Source: a virus
Taxonomy: Duplodnaviria > Heunggongvirae > Uroviricota > Caudoviricetes
Reading direction: 5' to 3' (one strand)
Length of the DNA: 39,543 bases
IMG/VR virus record: IMGVR_UViG_2541047868_000004
Part shown: positions 1 through 14,667 of the stretch, one piece after another
Layout of the letters: every line of letters starts with the position of its first letter
How positions within the stretch are numbered: position 1 is the stretch's first letter
The notes under the pieces: generated by a model
Seen by the model: the letters and a program-made list of their open reading frames with translations, nothing else
What the model was told of the DNA's origin: nothing
Database searches by the model: none
Position numbers and translations under genes: made by a program

Positions 1-1158
1 ATGCTCACCGTTAAGCAGATTGAAGCAGCAAAGCCGAAAGAAAAACCATACCGCCTACTCGATGGTAATGGCCTGTACCTTTATGTCCCTGTGTCAGGGA
101 AAAAGGTATGGCAGCTTCGCTACAAGATTGACGGTAAGGAGAAAATCCTGACCGTAGGAAAATATCCGCTAATGACTTTGCAGGAGGCAAGAGATAAAGC
201 ATGGACCGCGAGGAAAGACATCTCGGTTGGCATCGATCCGGTAAAAGCGAAAAAGGCTTCGTCTAACAACAATTCCTTTAGTGCCATTTACAAGGAATGG
301 TACGAGCACAAGAAGCAAGTCTGGTCAGTAGGCTATGCAACTGAACTTGCCAAAATGTTTGATGACGACATTTTACCCATCATCGGCGGTCTTGAGATTC
401 AGGATATTGAGCCGATGCAACTGCTGGAAGTAATCCGCAGATTTGAAGATCGCGGTGCAATGGAGCGAGCCAACAAAGCCCGCAGAAGATGCGGCGAGGT
501 TTTCCGTTACGCTATTGTCACCGGCAGGGCTAAATATAACCCGGCACCTGACCTTGCTGACGCCATGAAGGGGTACCGCAAGAAGAACTTCCCGTTTCTT
601 CCTGCAGACCAGATCCCGGCATTCAATAAAGCACTGGCAACATTTTCAGGAAGTATCGTATCGCTCATTGCCACCAAGGTTTTACGCTACACTGCCCTAA
701 GAACGAAAGAGCTTCGTTCCATGCTATGGAAGAACGTCGATTTTGAAAACAGAATTATCACCATCGACGCCAATGTGATGAAGGGACGCAAAATTCATGT
801 GGTCCCGATGTCAGACCAGGTGGTTGAACTTCTCACTACGCTAAGCTCAATCACCAAACCAGTATCAGAGTTTGTTTTTGCCGGGCGCAACGATAAGAAG
901 AAGTCAATCTGCGAGAACGCGGTACTGCTTGTGATCAAACAAATCGGCTATGAAGGTCTGGAAAGCGGTCACGGATTCAGGCATGAATTCAGCACGATTA
1001 TGAACGAGCACGAATGGCCTGCTGACGCTATTGAAGTGCAACTGGCACATGCCAACGGCGGATCTGTGCGAGGGATTTACAACCATGCTCAGTATCTCGA
1101 TAAGCGCAGAGAAATGATGCAGTGGTGGGCGGACTGGATTGATGAAAAGGTGGAGTGA
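1..1158 (+). CDS. int: Tyrosine integrase (P4/IntS-like site-specific recombinase)
   Basis: 385-aa ORF starting at the window's first ATG; recalled as near-identical to E. coli IntS-type integrases that sit next to tRNA-Arg argW; catalytic domain at C-terminus. Confidence 0.9.
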   Translation: MLTVKQIEAAKPKEKPYRLLDGNGLYLYVPVSGKKVWQLRYKIDGKEKILTVGKYPLMTLQEARDKAWTARKDISVGIDPVKAKKASSNNNSFSAIYKEWYEHKKQVWSVGYATELAKMFDDDILPIIGGLEIQDIEPMQLLEVIRRFEDRGAMERANKARRRCGEVFRYAIVTGRAKYNPAPDLADAMKGYRKKNFPFLPADQIPAFNKALATFSGSIVSLIATKVLRYTALRTKELRSMLWKNVDFENRIITIDANVMKGRKIHVVPMSDQVVELLTTLSSITKPVSEFVFAGRNDKKKSICENAVLLVIKQIGYEGLESGHGFRHEFSTIMNEHEWPADAIEVQLAHANGGSVRGIYNHAQYLDKRREMMQWWADWIDEKVE

Positions 1159-1294
1159 TCCACCTTAACCACTATCGGATAGTACAAAGCCTTGCAATCC
1201 AGTGCAAAGCTTTGTGTGTTTCAGTTCCCTCACAATCACTATAATGTTCATTACGGTAATCATAAAACTAATGTATAGTTACATATTGTTTTCT

Positions 1295-3469
1295 TCATTT
1301 CACCACCCAACCAGAATTCCAGCGACCTGATTCTTTGATGTAGAGTCTTCCATTTACGATATCTCGATACTCGCTTCCAGGTGTGGCTATTTGTACTCCT
1401 TCAGGATTTCCAGTGCCAGCAATTATACTGTAACTAACGTCTGTGGCTAAATTCCTAACAATGTTAGCAGGAGGGTAAACGTTATCTGCAACAATAATAT
1501 TTGAGCAACTTGCTGTTACATCTACAAAAAACTCATTGCTTATCGAGTTGTGATAACAGTTGTTACTAATCACACCATTTTTAGCAGATGAATCAATACC
1601 TATAACTGCGTCTCCAGCTACAGATTCAAATGAATTTGATGTCACAGTGAATCCGTGGCATTCGCAGTTAATATGGACAGCTCTTCTTCCGTTCATTGCT
1701 GTATTACCTACAATTGATATGTTTCTACTTAACAAAGTTCCTTTGTATTCGCCATCATCCTCAAATATATAGAATATCGCCTTAGCCGTATCAACTTTAT
1801 TGTTGCTTGCAATCACATTAGCAATGTAATTCCCTCTAAGGAATATCCCATTACATGAATCGACTGTGTTTCCAGTGATGGAAACTCCGTCAACCCATCT
1901 CATATCAAGAATGAAGCCATCACAGGACTCAAAATTATTTCCTGATATCCTCCAGTCTCTGTGAAATATTCTACTACCTTCCAATCCGCTCTCAATAAAT
2001 GTTGGTGTAAGGCATGATATCACAGACTTTCCAGTGCAATTTTTAAATGTATTATGATGTATACACACATCTCTTGATGTTTCCCGAAGAGTTGTGCTTA
2101 CTTTCCTCCCGGTAAATATTATTGCTGGATTAGTGAAATTTATAAATGTGTTTGAACCAATGTCAACATTTTCCCACCTAGAAAAGCCACGAATGCCAGA
2201 ATAAGAATTACCATCAAAAGTACAATGGTGGATTTTTATATCAATAACTGGCTGCGCTCCATCTGTTGAACCGTGATTCCCTACGCCAACAGCCCATGAC
2301 GGTAGAGATTCTGACGGTCCAAAATAACAACCAGACACTTTAATGCTAGCGATATTATCATTGCTGGACAATGGTGTTTCAATCTGAATAGCATCTGAAA
2401 AACCTCTGTTACCTGCCCAATCCATAAACCCCATAAAACGGCAGTTTTCAATATTAACATTTCTCACGCGAGACAAGTCTATAGCATGCGCCCCTGAAAC
2501 ATTAAGGAATGTGCAATCCCGAAATATAATCCCATTAGTAAAAACAAATTCAAATATACTGGCTTGGTTTTTGTATATATTGCCATTGTTATTAAAAACA
2601 CCACCAAATACAGATATATTATTACCACATTCGACTTCAGATGTGTATATGCAAGCAAATGTATTTACACCTGTGTCTGAATTATCAAAAGCACGAATAA
2701 TAGTTGCACCTCGTAGATGTAAACTTGTGTTTGAGTATATCATTATTTTTTTTGTTATTTTTATAAGCCATTCACTACGAAAAGTTAAATTCAAACATCC
2801 GTTTATCTTTGCGATATTTAAAGCATTCTGTAAGGCATCGCTATCGTCGCTTACACCATCACCTGTAACCCCAAACCATGACGGTGAAACCTCATTCCCG
2901 TAAACCCTCTTCCACCTTCTACCGTTAAAACCTACAAGAATTGTTCCGTCATTATCTTCTGATGTCGTATCTGTTGGGTCAGCATAGAACACCCCATCAC
3001 CGCCATCGAACAAATTATTTCTTCCATAACAGATTATTTTGTCATTTGTGCCATTATATGAACGTATGTCTGTATAATTACCACCTCCTAAATACGATAC
3101 CCCGTCAATCTGATTTAGTTTCTGCTGAAACATGTCTGGATCATACTTCAGCACATTAGGAAAATAGAATTGCTGCGCACCATACGCATCATAAACAGCC
3201 ATAGAATGGCCTTGCACAGTTACGAACTTGGCAATCTGTCCGTTATATACCGGATATCCAGCAGCGTTAATGATGATTGGTTGAGAAACAGGAACGTGAG
3301 ATCCATCTTCGTTCTCTACATAAACCTGAATCTGGTTTTCAGGATTTACCGGGTCAGTATCAATTTTACCAATATAAATTTTGCCATTGGCTACAGCTTT
3401 AAAAGAACGAGCCATAGTGAAGAGTTGCGAAGGCATACTCACTACAACATTGGCTGTAATGTCTGTCAT
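1295..3469 (-). CDS. Tailspike protein: P22 gp9-like N-terminal head-binding domain plus divergent beta-helix receptor-binding domain
   Basis: 724 aa; first ~110 residues ([11 protein letters not shown]...[15 protein letters not shown]...NVLKYDPD) closely match the P22 tailspike head-binding domain; the remainder is Gly/Asn/Ser-rich, consistent with a parallel beta-helix. Confidence 0.85.
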
Positions 3470-3537
3470 TTAATTTGCTCCAGATACAAGGAATCGCCGC
3501 AGCATTGCTACAGTGATGCATTATTAATCAAACAAAG

Positions 3538-3553
3538 AGACCACTGTGGTTTT
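3538..3553. promoter_or_regulatory. Mnt-operator-like palindrome (AGACCACTGTGGTTT) between tailspike and mnt
   Basis: Palindrome ACCAC-T-GTGGT seen in sequence; resembles the P22 Omnt core (CCACGGTGG) recalled from literature; lies in the divergent promoter region. Confidence 0.5.
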
Positions 3554-3615
3554 ATTGAGGATGCAACCAGCAGATAATAAGATGCCGATCCACTCACAAA
3601 AGCGAGGCATCAAGA

Positions 3616-3867
3616 ATGGGAAGAGATGACCCGCAATTTAATCTGCGGCTACCTTACGAATTAAAGGAAAAACTAAAACAGCGAGCCAAATCCAATGGCC
3701 GCTCTCTTAATTCAGAATTAGTTCAGATAGTGACTGATGCTGTATCAAAGCCATCCAAAATTTCAGGCTATCGAGACGATGCGGAACGCATCGCTGATGA
3801 GCAGTCCGAACTTGTTAAGAAGATGGTGTTTGATACGCTGAAGGATTTGTACAAAAAACCCACCTGA
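3616..3867 (+). CDS. mnt: Mnt repressor (ribbon-helix-helix, Arc/MetJ family)
   Basis: 83 aa; strong similarity to P22 Mnt including C-terminal ...DAERIADEQSELVKKMVFDTLKDLYKK. Confidence 0.85.
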   Translation: MGRDDPQFNLRLPYELKEKLKQRAKSNGRSLNSELVQIVTDAVSKPSKISGYRDDAERIADEQSELVKKMVFDTLKDLYKKPT

Positions 3868-3883
3868 TGGTGGGTTCCATTTA

Positions 3884-4303
3884 TTAGTCGTGCTTTGTTG
3901 ACGGTATAAGGGATGCATTTGCCTCTTTAGGCTTCAAGGTATACATCCCACCATTAAATGGATCTACAGCAAGCCAACCAATTAACCCACCAAACACAAG
4001 GTTTCCACCAATATACCAACCATTAGCATTGGCTTTGATTGGCAGGGTAACTGGTTCGTACCCATCCTTCTCCATAGTGATCTGGTAGCTCTTTTTGCCA
4101 AAATAACTACCATCTGACTTGGCAAGAGTTACTCCTTGCGGGGTCTTACCTTGCGCAACAATCACGCCTGATTCGTCTTTTACCTTAAAGCTCGCACCGG
4201 AAGGATTGCTGTTCACTTGCACAAGCTGTGTTTCGTCACCAACAATAGTTGCGCACCCAGATAACAATATAGCGCCAGCAACGACGCCGATAATCCTCTT
4301 CAT
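3884..4303 (-). CDS. Putative lipoprotein (moron)
   Basis: 139 aa; signal peptide with lipobox LLSGC; SD GGAAAG upstream; occupies the position where P22 carries sieA. Confidence 0.6.
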   Translation of the reverse strand: MKRIIGVVAGAILLSGCATIVGDETQLVQVNSNPSGASFKVKDESGVIVAQGKTPQGVTLAKSDGSYFGKKSYQITMEKDGYEPVTLPIKANANGWYIGGNLVFGGLIGWLAVDPFNGGMYTLKPKEANASLIPSTKHD

Positions 4304-4437
4304 ATTACTTTCCGTTTTGTTAGAATCAGAAAGATCTTAATAATAAAAAGTATTTTCGTGAAGATATTGTCGATTGAGTTAATAACTCATTTACACCCAA
4401 CAGTGCCATGATGGCAAAGATAAGGAGAGTTAATCAT

Positions 4438-4962
4438 ATGAAAAAATCACTGTTAATTATCCCGCTTCTGCTGGCAGGGTGTGCAAAGGTTAGCGACTAT
4501 CAGGCAAGTTGCGAACAACGCTATCCAAAGCTTAGCGATATGGCTAATTGCCTTGATGCTAGCGTGAAGAGCGACTCACGCATGGCATCAGCACCAACAC
4601 CTAAGTTATATGTCCTTGCTGCGAAGATGCTCGGGCAAGGTGTCGATGATGGCAAGATAAGTGACGCGCAGGCAAGACTTGAGCTTCAGAATCTTTATGT
4701 TCAATTACAAAGCCAAGAACAAGCCCAACAAATAGCACAAAGCCAAGCATTCCAGCAGGCTTTATTGAATTATCAGGCTGTAAACACAATGCAAGCTATC
4801 GAGCAAAAAGCGCGCCAGCCTGTTATAACTCAACCTTACCCAACACGCGTTGACACTTCACAAACTGCAATTCAGGGTTTGGAAATACAGTCACATGCAA
4901 CAGTAGCAGTAACATCAGATAACAATCAGCAAAGGTATCGCCTATGCAGAGGGATACGATAA
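4438..4962 (+). CDS. Putative lipoprotein with Gln-rich central region (moron)
   Basis: ORF 4408..4962; likely start at ATG 4438 (MKKSLLIIPLLLAGC) preceded by AAGGAG; lipobox LLAGC. Confidence 0.55.
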   Translation: MKKSLLIIPLLLAGCAKVSDYQASCEQRYPKLSDMANCLDASVKSDSRMASAPTPKLYVLAAKMLGQGVDDGKISDAQARLELQNLYVQLQSQEQAQQIAQSQAFQQALLNYQAVNTMQAIEQKARQPVITQPYPTRVDTSQTAIQGLEIQSHATVAVTSDNNQQRYRLCRGIR

Positions 4963-5012: not shown

Positions 5013-7010
5013 CTATTCTGACAACGCATCAGACTTAGCCCCCTGAGTAAGGGCGTTAATGGCCTTTTGCGCCTGCTGCATGGCTTTCTCAAACGCTGTT
5101 GATCCGCGTGGGGTGTTTGCCATTCGGAGCATTGCATTTCTGAATGGCTCGCTCTCATAGGCGCGAGTAAGAAGTCCGTAGCTTACTGCTGCGCCAGTTG
5201 TAGCCGGGTTCATTGCCGTCCCATACCCAATTATGAACGGGATAGTTTGCTGCCCTGTGGGTGTTGTTACTGCCGCTTTTGCAGCCTGCTGCGTGGATTG
5301 CAGGTAGTTTTTTAATCCTTTCAGATAAGCAGCGTCCTGCCCCTTAAATGTGATGCCAGTCTGGTTTTGCAGGATGTTAAGCTGCCGAAGGAACTGGTCA
5401 GGGGATCCGCCAGATTTCTCCATCGCCTTTCCAATGATGCCATTGCGCATTTGCGTCCTGCCAACACGACCAACTGAGTTATACAGAGTCTTAATTTCCG
5501 ATTTGTTCTTGCTGAATAGCATGTTGTTGACAACTTCCGGCGTCAGGTCGCCTTTCATGAGAACATTCTTCAGCCTGGTATTCTTTAGTTTCGCCGCTTC
5601 GTCAGCGTAGACGGCATTGGCCTGCTGATATTTACGGAGAGTATCGTTGCCAAGATTCTGACCAATGGCACCATTGATATCGTCGGTCATTGCCTTGTAA
5701 ACGCGCTGAATGGCAGCATCGGAACGGTTTGGTAACACTGGTCGCTCACCTTTCACGTCCATTCTGAACTGGCTGCGCAGGTCGCTTAATTGCTTCAAAT
5801 CCAGATTTACCGGACCATCAGGACCAGCATTGCGAACAAGTTCATCACGATATGATTGAAGTTTTGAAATAGTCTCGTTATCAGCAACCTTACCAAGCTT
5901 CTGCAGGTTAGATATCTCAGTATCAATCTGCTGAATTGCTCGCGCAGGCTGGATATTGACTCCCGCCATTGCATTCTGAACCTGCTCAAGACGGTTCCCT
6001 GCAGCACGACGAATTCCTGATGTTTTCGCTTTAAGGCTGTCAATAACAACAGCTGGATCATACTCACCGAATTTATCAGCAAATCTCTGCACCAACTGGC
6101 TTCTCGCTTCCTGTTGCGTTGCTCTCATTCCGCTTGTGCCAGCCAGGGGGATATTTTCCGCTGTCGTCTGCGCCATTTTCCCGACGCGGGAAGTAGGCTG
6201 TAACAGGTCTGTGGTGTGCAGAGGAACTCCTTCACGCTCTGCAAATCTGATAGCCTGCTGCGCTTCTGGCGCAATAGCACCACTAACGCCACGATAAGCA
6301 GCACCTAATCCACGTCCAGCAGCGTTAATAGCGCCGCCTGCCAGAACGCCAACACCTAAATCGGTGGCGAGGGCTTCCGCATCATCTTTCGCACTATTTG
6401 CAGCAAGTGACCCGACTGCGTTTTCAGCGAGAAGGCGAGTTGCACCCTGAGCGATTCTACCAGCGAGTGTTGGTGCCTGTGTTGCCGCTCTCTCAATGCC
6501 AGCAGGAGTGAGGTAAGGCAATGCCTCAGCAAATACCCTGCCCTCTGTAGTTTGTGGAGTCAGCGCGCCTTGCTGAAGGCCAAAGTCCTGCTCTAATCCC
6601 TGCGTTGTTACTCGTGGCGCTGGGTGATATGTCCCATCGCCAATTCCGAGTTTACCGCCAGCCCAAGCCGCCGCGCTTGTTACAGCATCGGCAACTGATG
6701 CAGGTATGTTTGCCACGTTCACGCCAGCCTGCACCAGTCCGCGACCAGTTTCTTTCACGGCTTCACCAAGATCAGACATAAATCCACTTTGCTGTGGTTG
6801 TTGCTGTGCTACTGGTTGCTGTGTATCCACTGGCTGCACAGATGGCAATGGATAGGCAGCATAGAAAGCTTGCTTAGCCTGCTCTGCATTTTCTCCGGCT
6901 TGCGGGGCCACGACTTCATTGAAGTATTGCTCCTGAGCCTGCGCTTTTTGTTCTGGTGCTAACGCCTGATACTGTGGAGAGGCGATAACATCTTTCCATG
7001 CTTTAGCCAT
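5013..7010 (-). CDS. Ejection (internal virion) protein, P22 gp16-like
   Basis: 665 aa; last gene of the gp7-gp20-gp16 triplet by order; Ala/Gly/Gln-rich low-complexity composition. Confidence 0.7.
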   Translation of the reverse strand: MAKAWKDVIASPQYQALAPEQKAQAQEQYFNEVVAPQAGENAEQAKQAFYAAYPLPSVQPVDTQQPVAQQQPQQSGFMSDLGEAVKETGRGLVQAGVNVANIPASVADAVTSAAAWAGGKLGIGDGTYHPAPRVTTQGLEQDFGLQQGALTPQTTEGRVFAEALPYLTPAGIERAATQAPTLAGRIAQGATRLLAENAVGSLAANSAKDDAEALATDLGVGVLAGGAINAAGRGLGAAYRGVSGAIAPEAQQAIRFAEREGVPLHTTDLLQPTSRVGKMAQTTAENIPLAGTSGMRATQQEARSQLVQRFADKFGEYDPAVVIDSLKAKTSGIRRAAGNRLEQVQNAMAGVNIQPARAIQQIDTEISNLQKLGKVADNETISKLQSYRDELVRNAGPDGPVNLDLKQLSDLRSQFRMDVKGERPVLPNRSDAAIQRVYKAMTDDINGAIGQNLGNDTLRKYQQANAVYADEAAKLKNTRLKNVLMKGDLTPEVVNNMLFSKNKSEIKTLYNSVGRVGRTQMRNGIIGKAMEKSGGSPDQFLRQLNILQNQTGITFKGQDAAYLKGLKNYLQSTQQAAKAAVTTPTGQQTIPFIIGYGTAMNPATTGAAVSYGLLTRAYESEPFRNAMLRMANTPRGSTAFEKAMQQAQKAINALTQGAKSDALSE

Positions 7011-13773: not shown

Positions 13774-14667
13774 TTATTTTTTTGCCTTTTTAGCGGCGAA
13801 ATACGGCGTCCAGTCACCAGTTTCCAGCGCCTTGGCTTTCAGTTTGTCGAGGTTGTTGATTACTGCGCCGTTGCTCCCCTTAACTGTCGGGGTTGTGGCT
13901 GCCGTGGTTTTTGCTTTTGGCATGATTCTGGCCTTCGATTCGATACGTTCCAGCAGACGACCAATTGCTACGGGGTTGGTAGCTTCTGCCAGTTGCTTGC
14001 GCAGTTCAGCGTTGCGACCGAGTGCCAGAACAACGATTTCCGGCTTCTCTGACTCAAACAAGATCGCGTTTTGTGTCTCGATGGGGATTTCCTCGAGTAC
14101 GGCCTGCTCAGCTTCCTGATAGCCAGGAACTTTGAGAGCCTTAACACGTTGCTGATATTTGGATAATCGCTCTTGATAAGCAGCCTGAAGCTCCTGCTCC
14201 TTCTGCTTGCGAGCCATCTCCTGTTGCTGGTACTTTCCGTTATCCTCTGCCCACTTAGCCATGCGTTGCTGATAGATTTCTTCATCGAAACCGATGTCCT
14301 CATCATCCAGTTTTGGCATTCGCGGTGGTTGAGTGATTACCGGCTGCTGCTCGACGGGTTTCTGAGACTGACGCATCAGCTCTTTCAGCTCGCGGTCTTT
14401 CTCTTTAATCGTCTTGCGCAGGTGTTTTACCAGTCCATGCTCTGCGCTATCTTCGCTGGTTGGCGAATCCAGCTTTTCGTCACCAAAGTAGAATTCCTGT
14501 TCTGATTCGTCGTCATCAGTTTCAGTAGCTTCCTCTGCATCATTGCCAGAGGACTCACCGCCATCTTCTGTTTCGACTTCTTCAGCCAGTTCGACATCAT
14601 CAGGAATCTGCTCTGACGCGTCGGTTTCGATTTCAACTTCTGGTGTGTTTTCTGCCATCTGGTCCAT
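13774..14667 (-). CDS. Scaffolding protein (P22 gp8-like)
   Basis: 297 aa; acidic N-terminus, extensive coiled coil, basic C-terminal helix-turn-helix (…KAKALETGDWTPYFAAKKAKK). Confidence 0.8.
   Translation of the reverse strand: MDQMAENTPEVEIETDASEQIPDDVELAEEVETEDGGESSGNDAEEATETDDDESEQEFYFGDEKLDSPTSEDSAEHGLVKHLRKTIKEKDRELKELMRQSQKPVEQQPVITQPPRMPKLDDEDIGFDEEIYQQRMAKWAEDNGKYQQQEMARKQKEQELQAAYQERLSKYQQRVKALKVPGYQEAEQAVLEEIPIETQNAILFESEKPEIVVLALGRNAELRKQLAEATNPVAIGRLLERIESKARIMPKAKTTAATTPTVKGSNGAVINNLDKLKAKALETGDWTPYFAAKKAKK

Follow-up and report, generated by a model that had tools for sequence, protein, structure and literature searches.

The mnt gene lying beside the tailspike gene of this phage probably constitutes, together with its flanking signals, a mnt-only immI region of the P22 type ("ant moron"), that is, a self-contained cassette in which no operator-controlled promoter is aimed at the tailspike. 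Its parts would be a homologue of the Pmnt promoter, one operator abutting the -35 hexamer (centre at about -45), an intact mnt of the class termed here Gln6, and a bidirectional terminator. The mnt-only arrangement as such is already known, as it was described in 2008 and 2021. Villafane et al. 2008 gave the region the name "ant moron" and listed ST64T, ST104 and Para1 as carrying mnt plus one unknown gene (PMC2629481), and Zaworski et al. 2021 described the mnt-only ant moron of phage L, citing genetics by which L is without a functional immI (PMC8022706). The puzzle is that a repressor and its operator are held under strong purifying selection though their only known target, Pant with ant, is gone. 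An answer would show the purpose of "orphan" phage repressors, be it immunity in trans against antirepressor phages, insulation of a structural gene, or another one.

Layout of the locus

The window, by which we mean the whole 39.5-kb stretch of DNA analysed, is a P22-like genome (Lederbergvirus). Its ORF list starts with int (1..1158, + strand), followed by the gene of a 724-aa tailspike (1295..3469, - strand), in which a P22-type head-binding N-domain (residues 1-112, Pfam Head_binding, E=1.8e-66) is joined to a beta-helix receptor domain. A ribosome-binding site for the tailspike, GGAG (3478..3481, - strand), can be read off the sequence and is kept in relatives. Across a gap of 146 bp, mnt diverges from the tailspike gene as an intact ORF of 83 aa (3616..3867, + strand) that is preceded by GAGG (3604..3607, + strand), likewise read off as its ribosome-binding site. 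Thus, the sequence-only reading, which had placed a mnt gene next to the tailspike, was right on this point, as both Pfam Arc and Repressor_Mnt are recognized in the product.

A predicted bidirectional intrinsic terminator, found by hairpin search and folding, overlaps the mnt stop codon (3857..3876, both strands). Its - strand, which faces tailspike-bound transcription, forms a 9-bp GC-rich stem followed by UUUUUUGU, and the folding energies amount to -15.4 kcal/mol (- strand) and -14.0 kcal/mol (+ strand). The epsilon34 record annotates a late-strand terminator over the 3' end of mnt as well. Upstream of the terminator on the tailspike strand lies a lipoprotein-like moron gene (3884..4303, - strand), a homologue of epsilon34 gene 15 and of GALLYPH_14 from the E. 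coli phage Gally, and divergent from it a second lipoprotein-like moron gene (4408..4962, + strand), whose Gally homologue is GALLYPH_13. Their lipoboxes read LSGC and LAGC, respectively, and a Pfam search with the two genes gave zero matches. Promoter-like sites are found between them on the + strand (4299..4326, 11.6 bits) and on the - strand (4362..4334, 10.1 bits). The gene-16 homologue (5013..7010, - strand; ORF list) follows. An AT-rich block (~1200..4800, 33-45% GC) extends over the moron genes and the receptor domain of the tailspike, compared with 48-55% GC in the late genes next to it.

In P22 (BK000583), immI is arranged in the order mnt - Omnt/Pant/Oarc/Pmnt - arc - sar - ant, upstream of gene 9. 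The window resembles it in occupying the slot flanked by the gene-16 homologue and the tailspike, in a mnt that runs antisense to the late operon and encodes both Mnt domains, in a core CCAC-N-GTGG placed ahead of a TTGAGx -35 of Pmnt, and in having a terminator between module and tailspike. Unlike P22, it lacks Pant, the Arc operator, arc, sar and ant; furthermore, its operator is changed at +/-5 (T to A) and +/-7 (G to A), and the N-domain of its Mnt is replaced. The absence of arc and ant, which had been asserted from the sequence alone, was borne out by tblastn of the whole window with Ant, Rha and Arc queries from P22, L088 and N7, which found mnt only; at E<=1, the sole extra match to Ant or Rha queries was at chance level (ant_L088, E=0.93). 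Rfam gave neither sar nor any other match in the window, with P22 as positive control (sar, 97.8 bits). By a manual count, 7/21 positions of the P22 Arc operator are matched in the window, by which measure the Arc operator is gone.

Mnt is intact and of a different DNA-binding class

The window Mnt comprises a ribbon-helix-helix domain (residues 3-50, Pfam Arc PF03869, E=2.8e-22) and a C-terminal coiled-coil tetramerisation domain (residues 53-80, Pfam Repressor_Mnt PF11423, E=2.2e-18), and it shares 76% identity with P22 Mnt. Among PDB entries, it matches 1mnt (E=2.8e-34) and, with a nearly identical sequence, 1qey (E=3.1e-12). The gene is a mosaic with its joint at the domain boundary, codons 1-45 being 64% and codons 46-83 being 85% identical in nucleotides to P22 (L003), and its product combines an N-terminal ribbon-helix-helix of the Gln6 class with a P22-like C-terminal domain. 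The beta-strand DNA contacts of P22 Mnt, reportedly worked out by Knight and Sauer in 1989, are Arg2, His6, Asn8 and Arg10. Arg2, Asn8 and Arg10 are kept in the window Mnt and His6 is replaced by Gln, which fits a changed operator specificity rather than lost function.

The gene is under purifying selection and shows no decay. An identical Mnt protein is encoded in 40 loci, the window counted; compared with ST160, mnt of the window has dS 0.44 and dN 0.048 (dN/dS 0.11), and within the DNA-binding domain the comparison with phage L yields 26/31 synonymous and 9/104 nonsynonymous differences. A nonsense codon interrupts mnt in 2/69 Gln6 loci.

A conserved putative operator of the Gln6 class

The predicted Mnt operator is the palindrome GACCAC-T-GTGGTT at 3539..3551 (centre 3545), to which neither strand is assigned, and which is supported by its sequence, by the alignment of 69 loci described below and by the spacing of P22 Omnt. 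An operator-like palindrome within 3538..3553 had been proposed from the sequence, and it indeed proved conserved and spaced as in P22. It lies 70 bp ahead of the tailspike start and, on the tailspike strand, downstream of the terminator at 3857..3876. Since the arms are complementary at 5/6 positions and the exact arms have only 5 bases, an inverted-repeat search with a 6-base seed did not report it, and the palindrome was checked by eye and by pattern search. By itself, a 5+5 palindrome within 146 bp would be weak evidence, with a chance expectation that we estimate at ~0.1.

Three further observations make it convincing. First, the core CCAC-N-GTGG is found just once in all 39.5 kb of the window, where chance would give 0.19 matches. 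Second, 10 nt separate the operator from the -35 of Pmnt, as in P22, where Omnt (AGGTCCAC-C-GTGGACCT) starts 10 nt ahead of the Pmnt -35 TTGAGA. Third, GACCAC-N-GTGGTC is perfect in 62/69 Gln6 loci while the centre base varies freely (T26, C21, A14, G8). The left flank carries indels of 11-13 bp among the same loci. A more extended signature, consisting of GACCAC-N-GTGGTC, TTATTG(A/T)GG, 17 bp and TA(A/T)GAT, is shared throughout the 69-locus alignment and by phage L, from which the window is one base off (3551). ST160 and L have the operator AAGACCAC-G-GTGGTCTT, of the same class as that of the window.

Point changes in the operator are found in 7/69 Gln6 loci, the window counted. The right arm GTGGTT, with T at 3551, is found in only two of the 69 loci, the window itself and L027, a metagenomic contig identical to it. 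Judging from the alignment, this T derives from an ancestral C, which in the right arm is the outermost of the conserved bases; the change probably weakens one half-site of the window operator, lowering its affinity. In a more distant mnt-only clade (L219-L224), the left operator arm is degenerate.

Very likely, GACCAC-N-GTGGTC is the cognate operator of Gln6-type Mnt, because it accompanies Gln6-type ribbon-helix-helix proteins in separate contexts. Three independent ones were found, namely the mnt-only loci, complete immI modules, and an unrelated element. In the latter, an integrative element (L117 8150..8670; also L114), three copies of GACCAC(C/G)GTGGT(C/T) precede the gene of a 147-aa ribbon-helix-helix protein starting SREDPQFKLRMP, and a 523-aa ATPase-like ORF comes after it. 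This element, as well as the complete module L088, came from a search of viral contigs with a 15-nt operator pattern, which hit at least 120 loci; 90 of 120 matches listed were without a P22-like gene. When genome contigs were scanned with the operator pattern, only chance matches in unrelated taxa turned up, and a protein scan of genome contigs confirmed no relative.

The idea that residue 6 by itself dictates the operator class was discarded: in phage N7 and in an ETEC prophage, Gln6 is paired with the operator TAGCAC-C-GTACTA, so specificity is not set by this residue alone. Both N7 (L229, 2660..2745) and the ETEC prophage (L230) carry complete E. coli mnt-arc-ant modules, with an Mnt-like protein ARNDPQFNVRMP.

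Promoter candidates in the 146-bp gap

Promoter calls are based on consensus scoring only, for which P22 Pant (16.7 bits) and P22 Pmnt (14.3 bits) served as controls of the position weight matrix (PWM); as background, scores of >=10 occur about 0.5 times and scores of >=6 about 8 times per kb per strand. Where P22 has Pmnt, the + strand of the window holds a candidate -35, TTGAGG (3555..3560), and a candidate -10, TAAGAT (3578..3583), the two being separated by a 17-bp spacer and scoring 11.7 bits together. From this we infer that the Pmnt homologue would start near 3590, placing the operator centre near -45. Its hexamers recur throughout the mnt-only loci, the -35 as TTG(A/T)(G/A)G in 69/69 and the -10 as TAAGAT in 52 and TATGAT in 17. 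The mnt leader also contains a possible hairpin, GATGCC...GGCATC, which was discarded because its 5' arm is upstream of the inferred start site.

In P22, Pant (TTGACA-17-TATATT) fully overlaps Pmnt in the opposite orientation, its transcription starting at Omnt and the Arc operator filling the spacer common to both promoters. The two Pant hexamers correspond to ATCGGC and TTGCAT in the window. Pant is likewise absent from 69/69 mnt-only loci, and the TTGACA -35 is kept in P22 and in the complete modules of the Gln6 class. The top tailspike-directed candidate within 3470..3615 is TTTTGT-16-TATTAT with 5.9 bits, which amounts to background because sites of >=6 bits come at ~8 per kb per strand; a consensus promoter scan of both gap strands returned zero sites. 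On these sequence grounds, Pant is lost, and nothing above background aims at the tailspike. The earlier suggestion that an operator-controlled promoter reads straight into the tailspike gene thus finds no support in the sequence, nor does the comparison with immI regions of P22-like phages, which had been proposed as a check, lend it any.

We therefore consider it quite unlikely that a Mnt-controlled promoter in 3470..3615 drives the tailspike directly and independently of the late operon. In its favor, the operator is conserved despite the loss of arc and ant, and a weak -10-like TATTAT (3574..3579), whose ST160 counterpart is TATGAT, is found on the tailspike strand; the altered Pant hexamers, a best score of 5.9 bits against 16.7 for P22 Pant, and the empty consensus scan on both strands speak against it. 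Expression data from Gally, discussed below, bear on both sides.

Distribution and origin of the mnt-only cassette

Our comparative set consisted of 80 IMG/VR loci encoding Mnt relatives, together with phage records. Gene content goes along with the class of Mnt: in 69/69 loci with Gln6-class Mnt (start GRDDPQFNLRLP, Gln at mature position 6) arc and ant are absent, and in 17/17 loci with His6-class Mnt (P22-type start ARDDPHFNFRMP) both are present. Across the 69 Gln6 loci, the distance from mnt to the tailspike start is 135, 146-148 or ~425 bp. In the loci L024, L035, L052-L056, L061, L065 and L070, an AT-rich insert of ~280 bp comes directly after codon 4 of the former tailspike start, and the tailspike begins anew beyond it; two of these loci have a stop codon in mnt. 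The stretch comprising tailspike start, gap and mnt is present in 112/5426 complete E. coli genomes (~2%).

Among named phages, a mnt-only ant moron is carried by Salmonella phages L, ST64T, ST104, ST160 and SE1 and by E. coli phages Gally and vB_EcoP-720R6. As in ST160, Gally, 720R6 and L, mnt of the window adjoins the tailspike gene and diverges from it, with the same Pmnt and the same Gln6 N-domain. The closest DNA relatives are vB_EcoP-720R6 (98.3%) and Gally (97.3%); Gally Mnt is 100% identical to that of the window, and the Gally record annotates a "Mnt repressor" beside the "tailspike protein". Salmonella phages ST160, SE1, ST-87 and others match the stretch in one piece at 82.7% identity. 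Unlike L and ST160, the window has another tailspike receptor domain and other moron neighbours, and phage L (L086) shares operator, promoter and N-domain with the window but has an unrelated Mnt C-terminal domain. The cassette spans E. coli and Salmonella phages with differing tailspikes and neighbour genes.

Complete immI modules of the Gln6 class were found in several IMG/VR loci (L088/L209, L212-L217, L223). They resemble the window in their Mnt (ARDDPQFNLRM) and in an operator, (G/A)AGACCAC-C-GTGGTCTT, that occupies the corresponding place ahead of the mnt promoter. Unlike the window, they keep the TTGACA -35 of Pant, arc and ant, and they occupy a site in the tail region with no P22-type tailspike beside it. 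Phages with such modules have their nearest matches among Erwinia siphoviruses and Yersinia myoviruses. Because these complete modules share the Mnt class and the operator, sequence comparison indicates that the mnt-only cassette arose from a complete immI module via loss of Pant, arc and ant.

The locus had alternatively been read as a deletion remnant. This stands as far as the derivation from a complete immI module is concerned, but not in the sense of decaying junk, as dN/dS of 0.11 and the constraint on the operator show that the cassette is not decaying. Accordingly, the slimmest chance among the readings considered falls to a functionless relic, in which mnt and operator would persist merely through youth or by hitch-hiking with the tailspike and moron region. 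Such a relic would be compatible with the Gally mnt deletion, which had no phenotype in the assays done, with mnt RNA at background in stationary LB (PMC9928086), with the operator point changes (7/69, window counted) and with the stop codons in mnt (2/69). It is hard to reconcile with the low dN/dS, with a DNA-binding domain kept while synonymous sites are saturated in the comparison with phage L, with arms that are near-invariant around a centre base taking all four values and beside a flank with indels, and with the spread of the cassette over E. coli and Salmonella phages of varied tailspikes and neighbours.

Expression of the Gally homologue

Gally offers expression data for a locus encoding the very same Mnt. 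The values given here were converted from log2(fpkm+5) and compare stationary LB with macrophages; counting was possibly not strand-specific (PMC9928086). In stationary LB, mnt is at ~8 fpkm, which is background, and it rises to ~330-500 in macrophages, about 40-fold (PMC9928086). The tailspike gene goes from ~10 fpkm to ~100-220, about 20-fold, without induction of the late operon, and the injection gene stays at ~10 fpkm in both conditions (PMC9928086). GALLYPH_14, the lipoprotein gene upstream, reaches ~2000 fpkm and belongs, with GALLYPH_13, to the most strongly induced genes in macrophages, and the small downstream gene GALLYPH_17 is the closest expression match to the tailspike (PMC9928086). 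Furthermore, Misson et al. 2023 obtained a viable Gally lysogen with a mnt::KanR deletion, which survived in macrophages as the wild type (PMC9928086). Viability of this deletion fits a phage with no antirepressor to hold down.

As tailspike RNA goes up while the injection gene remains flat, some tailspike-sense RNA must arise without the late operon and start downstream of gene 16. It could originate from read-through of the terminator from the very active moron promoter, from internal promoters, or from an unrecognised promoter in the gap; for the window, the moron gene at 3884..4303 is a possible source of such read-through. The rise from ~10 to ~220 fpkm against an injection gene at ~10 speaks for a Mnt-controlled tailspike promoter. 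However, mnt and tailspike RNA rise together and not inversely, which is unlike one repressing the other, and the tailspike tracks GALLYPH_17, a pattern that points to read-through or to promoters that are internal or lie downstream. The ~40-fold change of mnt also argues against tight autoregulation. As a speculation, the AT-rich block at ~1200..4800 could be silenced and released as one, which would fit the joint induction of the five rightmost genes of Gally.

Possible roles of operator-bound Mnt

In the mnt-only cassette that we favor, the lysogen would produce Mnt from Pmnt, and tetramers of it would occupy the single operator. The tailspike would be transcribed as in P22, with antiterminated late polymerase crossing the terminator at 3857..3876 and running antisense through mnt. 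Gene 9 of P22 is reportedly served by antiterminated late transcription, a finding credited to Berget, Poteete and Sauer in 1983. Mnt stimulates Pmnt indirectly. In cis, operator-bound Mnt would be limited to tuning Pmnt or to hindering polymerases that cross the site.

Most likely, the selective value of Mnt lies in its DNA binding, either in trans on Pant of phages with the same operator or as a barrier before the tailspike. Ranking the roles of bound Mnt, we would place autoregulation and repression of Pant in trans first, a roadblock before the tailspike second, and no role at all last. Among the complete modules sampled, no ant under GACCAC-N-GTGGTC was found in phages related to those of E. 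coli or Salmonella, which weakens the idea of an action in trans for those hosts.

As a roadblock or insulator, Mnt bound at 3539..3551 would attenuate incoming polymerases, whether from late transcription or from read-through that began at the lipoprotein-gene promoter, thereby trimming the tailspike dosage or keeping the gene quiet in lysogens. We regard this as unlikely. In its favor, the operator stands past the terminator and 70 bp ahead of the tailspike start, both of its arms are constrained although Pant is gone, and the upstream moron gene is very highly expressed in Gally (PMC9928086). Villafane et al. 2008 had raised the possibility that late transcription reading through into the tailspike gene is affected by Mnt and Arc (PMC2629481). 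On the other side, Gally tailspike RNA climbs even with mnt RNA up 40-fold, and the left arm is decayed in the mnt-only clade L219-L224. Antiterminated polymerases are, moreover, usually hard to stop.

More broadly, Mnt and its operator might gate tailspike transcription that proceeds in lysogens independently of the late operon, whether through a gap promoter or through a roadblock to read-through, a reading to which we give about the same small chance as to the tailspike promoter itself. If true, a structural gene of the virion would be expressed from the prophage under the control of Mnt, for instance inside macrophages as in Gally.

Between the operator and the tailspike start, the + strand can fold into a small hairpin (3502..3519, 7-pair stem, -7.0 kcal/mol), which might halt antisense transcripts exiting the tailspike gene. 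In phage L, a predicted + strand terminator is annotated across the tailspike start, near the counterpart of this hairpin.

Finally, we considered whether STnc6030, the antisense RNA of phage BTP1, is a transcript derived from Pmnt, and rejected this, as BTP1 has neither mnt nor the operator and the two are not homologous. In BTP1 (L208), the ant moron is wholly lost, and a gap of 155 bp (14023..14177) separates gene 16 from the tailspike. STnc6030 is a lysogenic antisense RNA over the junction of gene 16 and tailspike that excludes superinfecting BTP1, and is thus related in concept.
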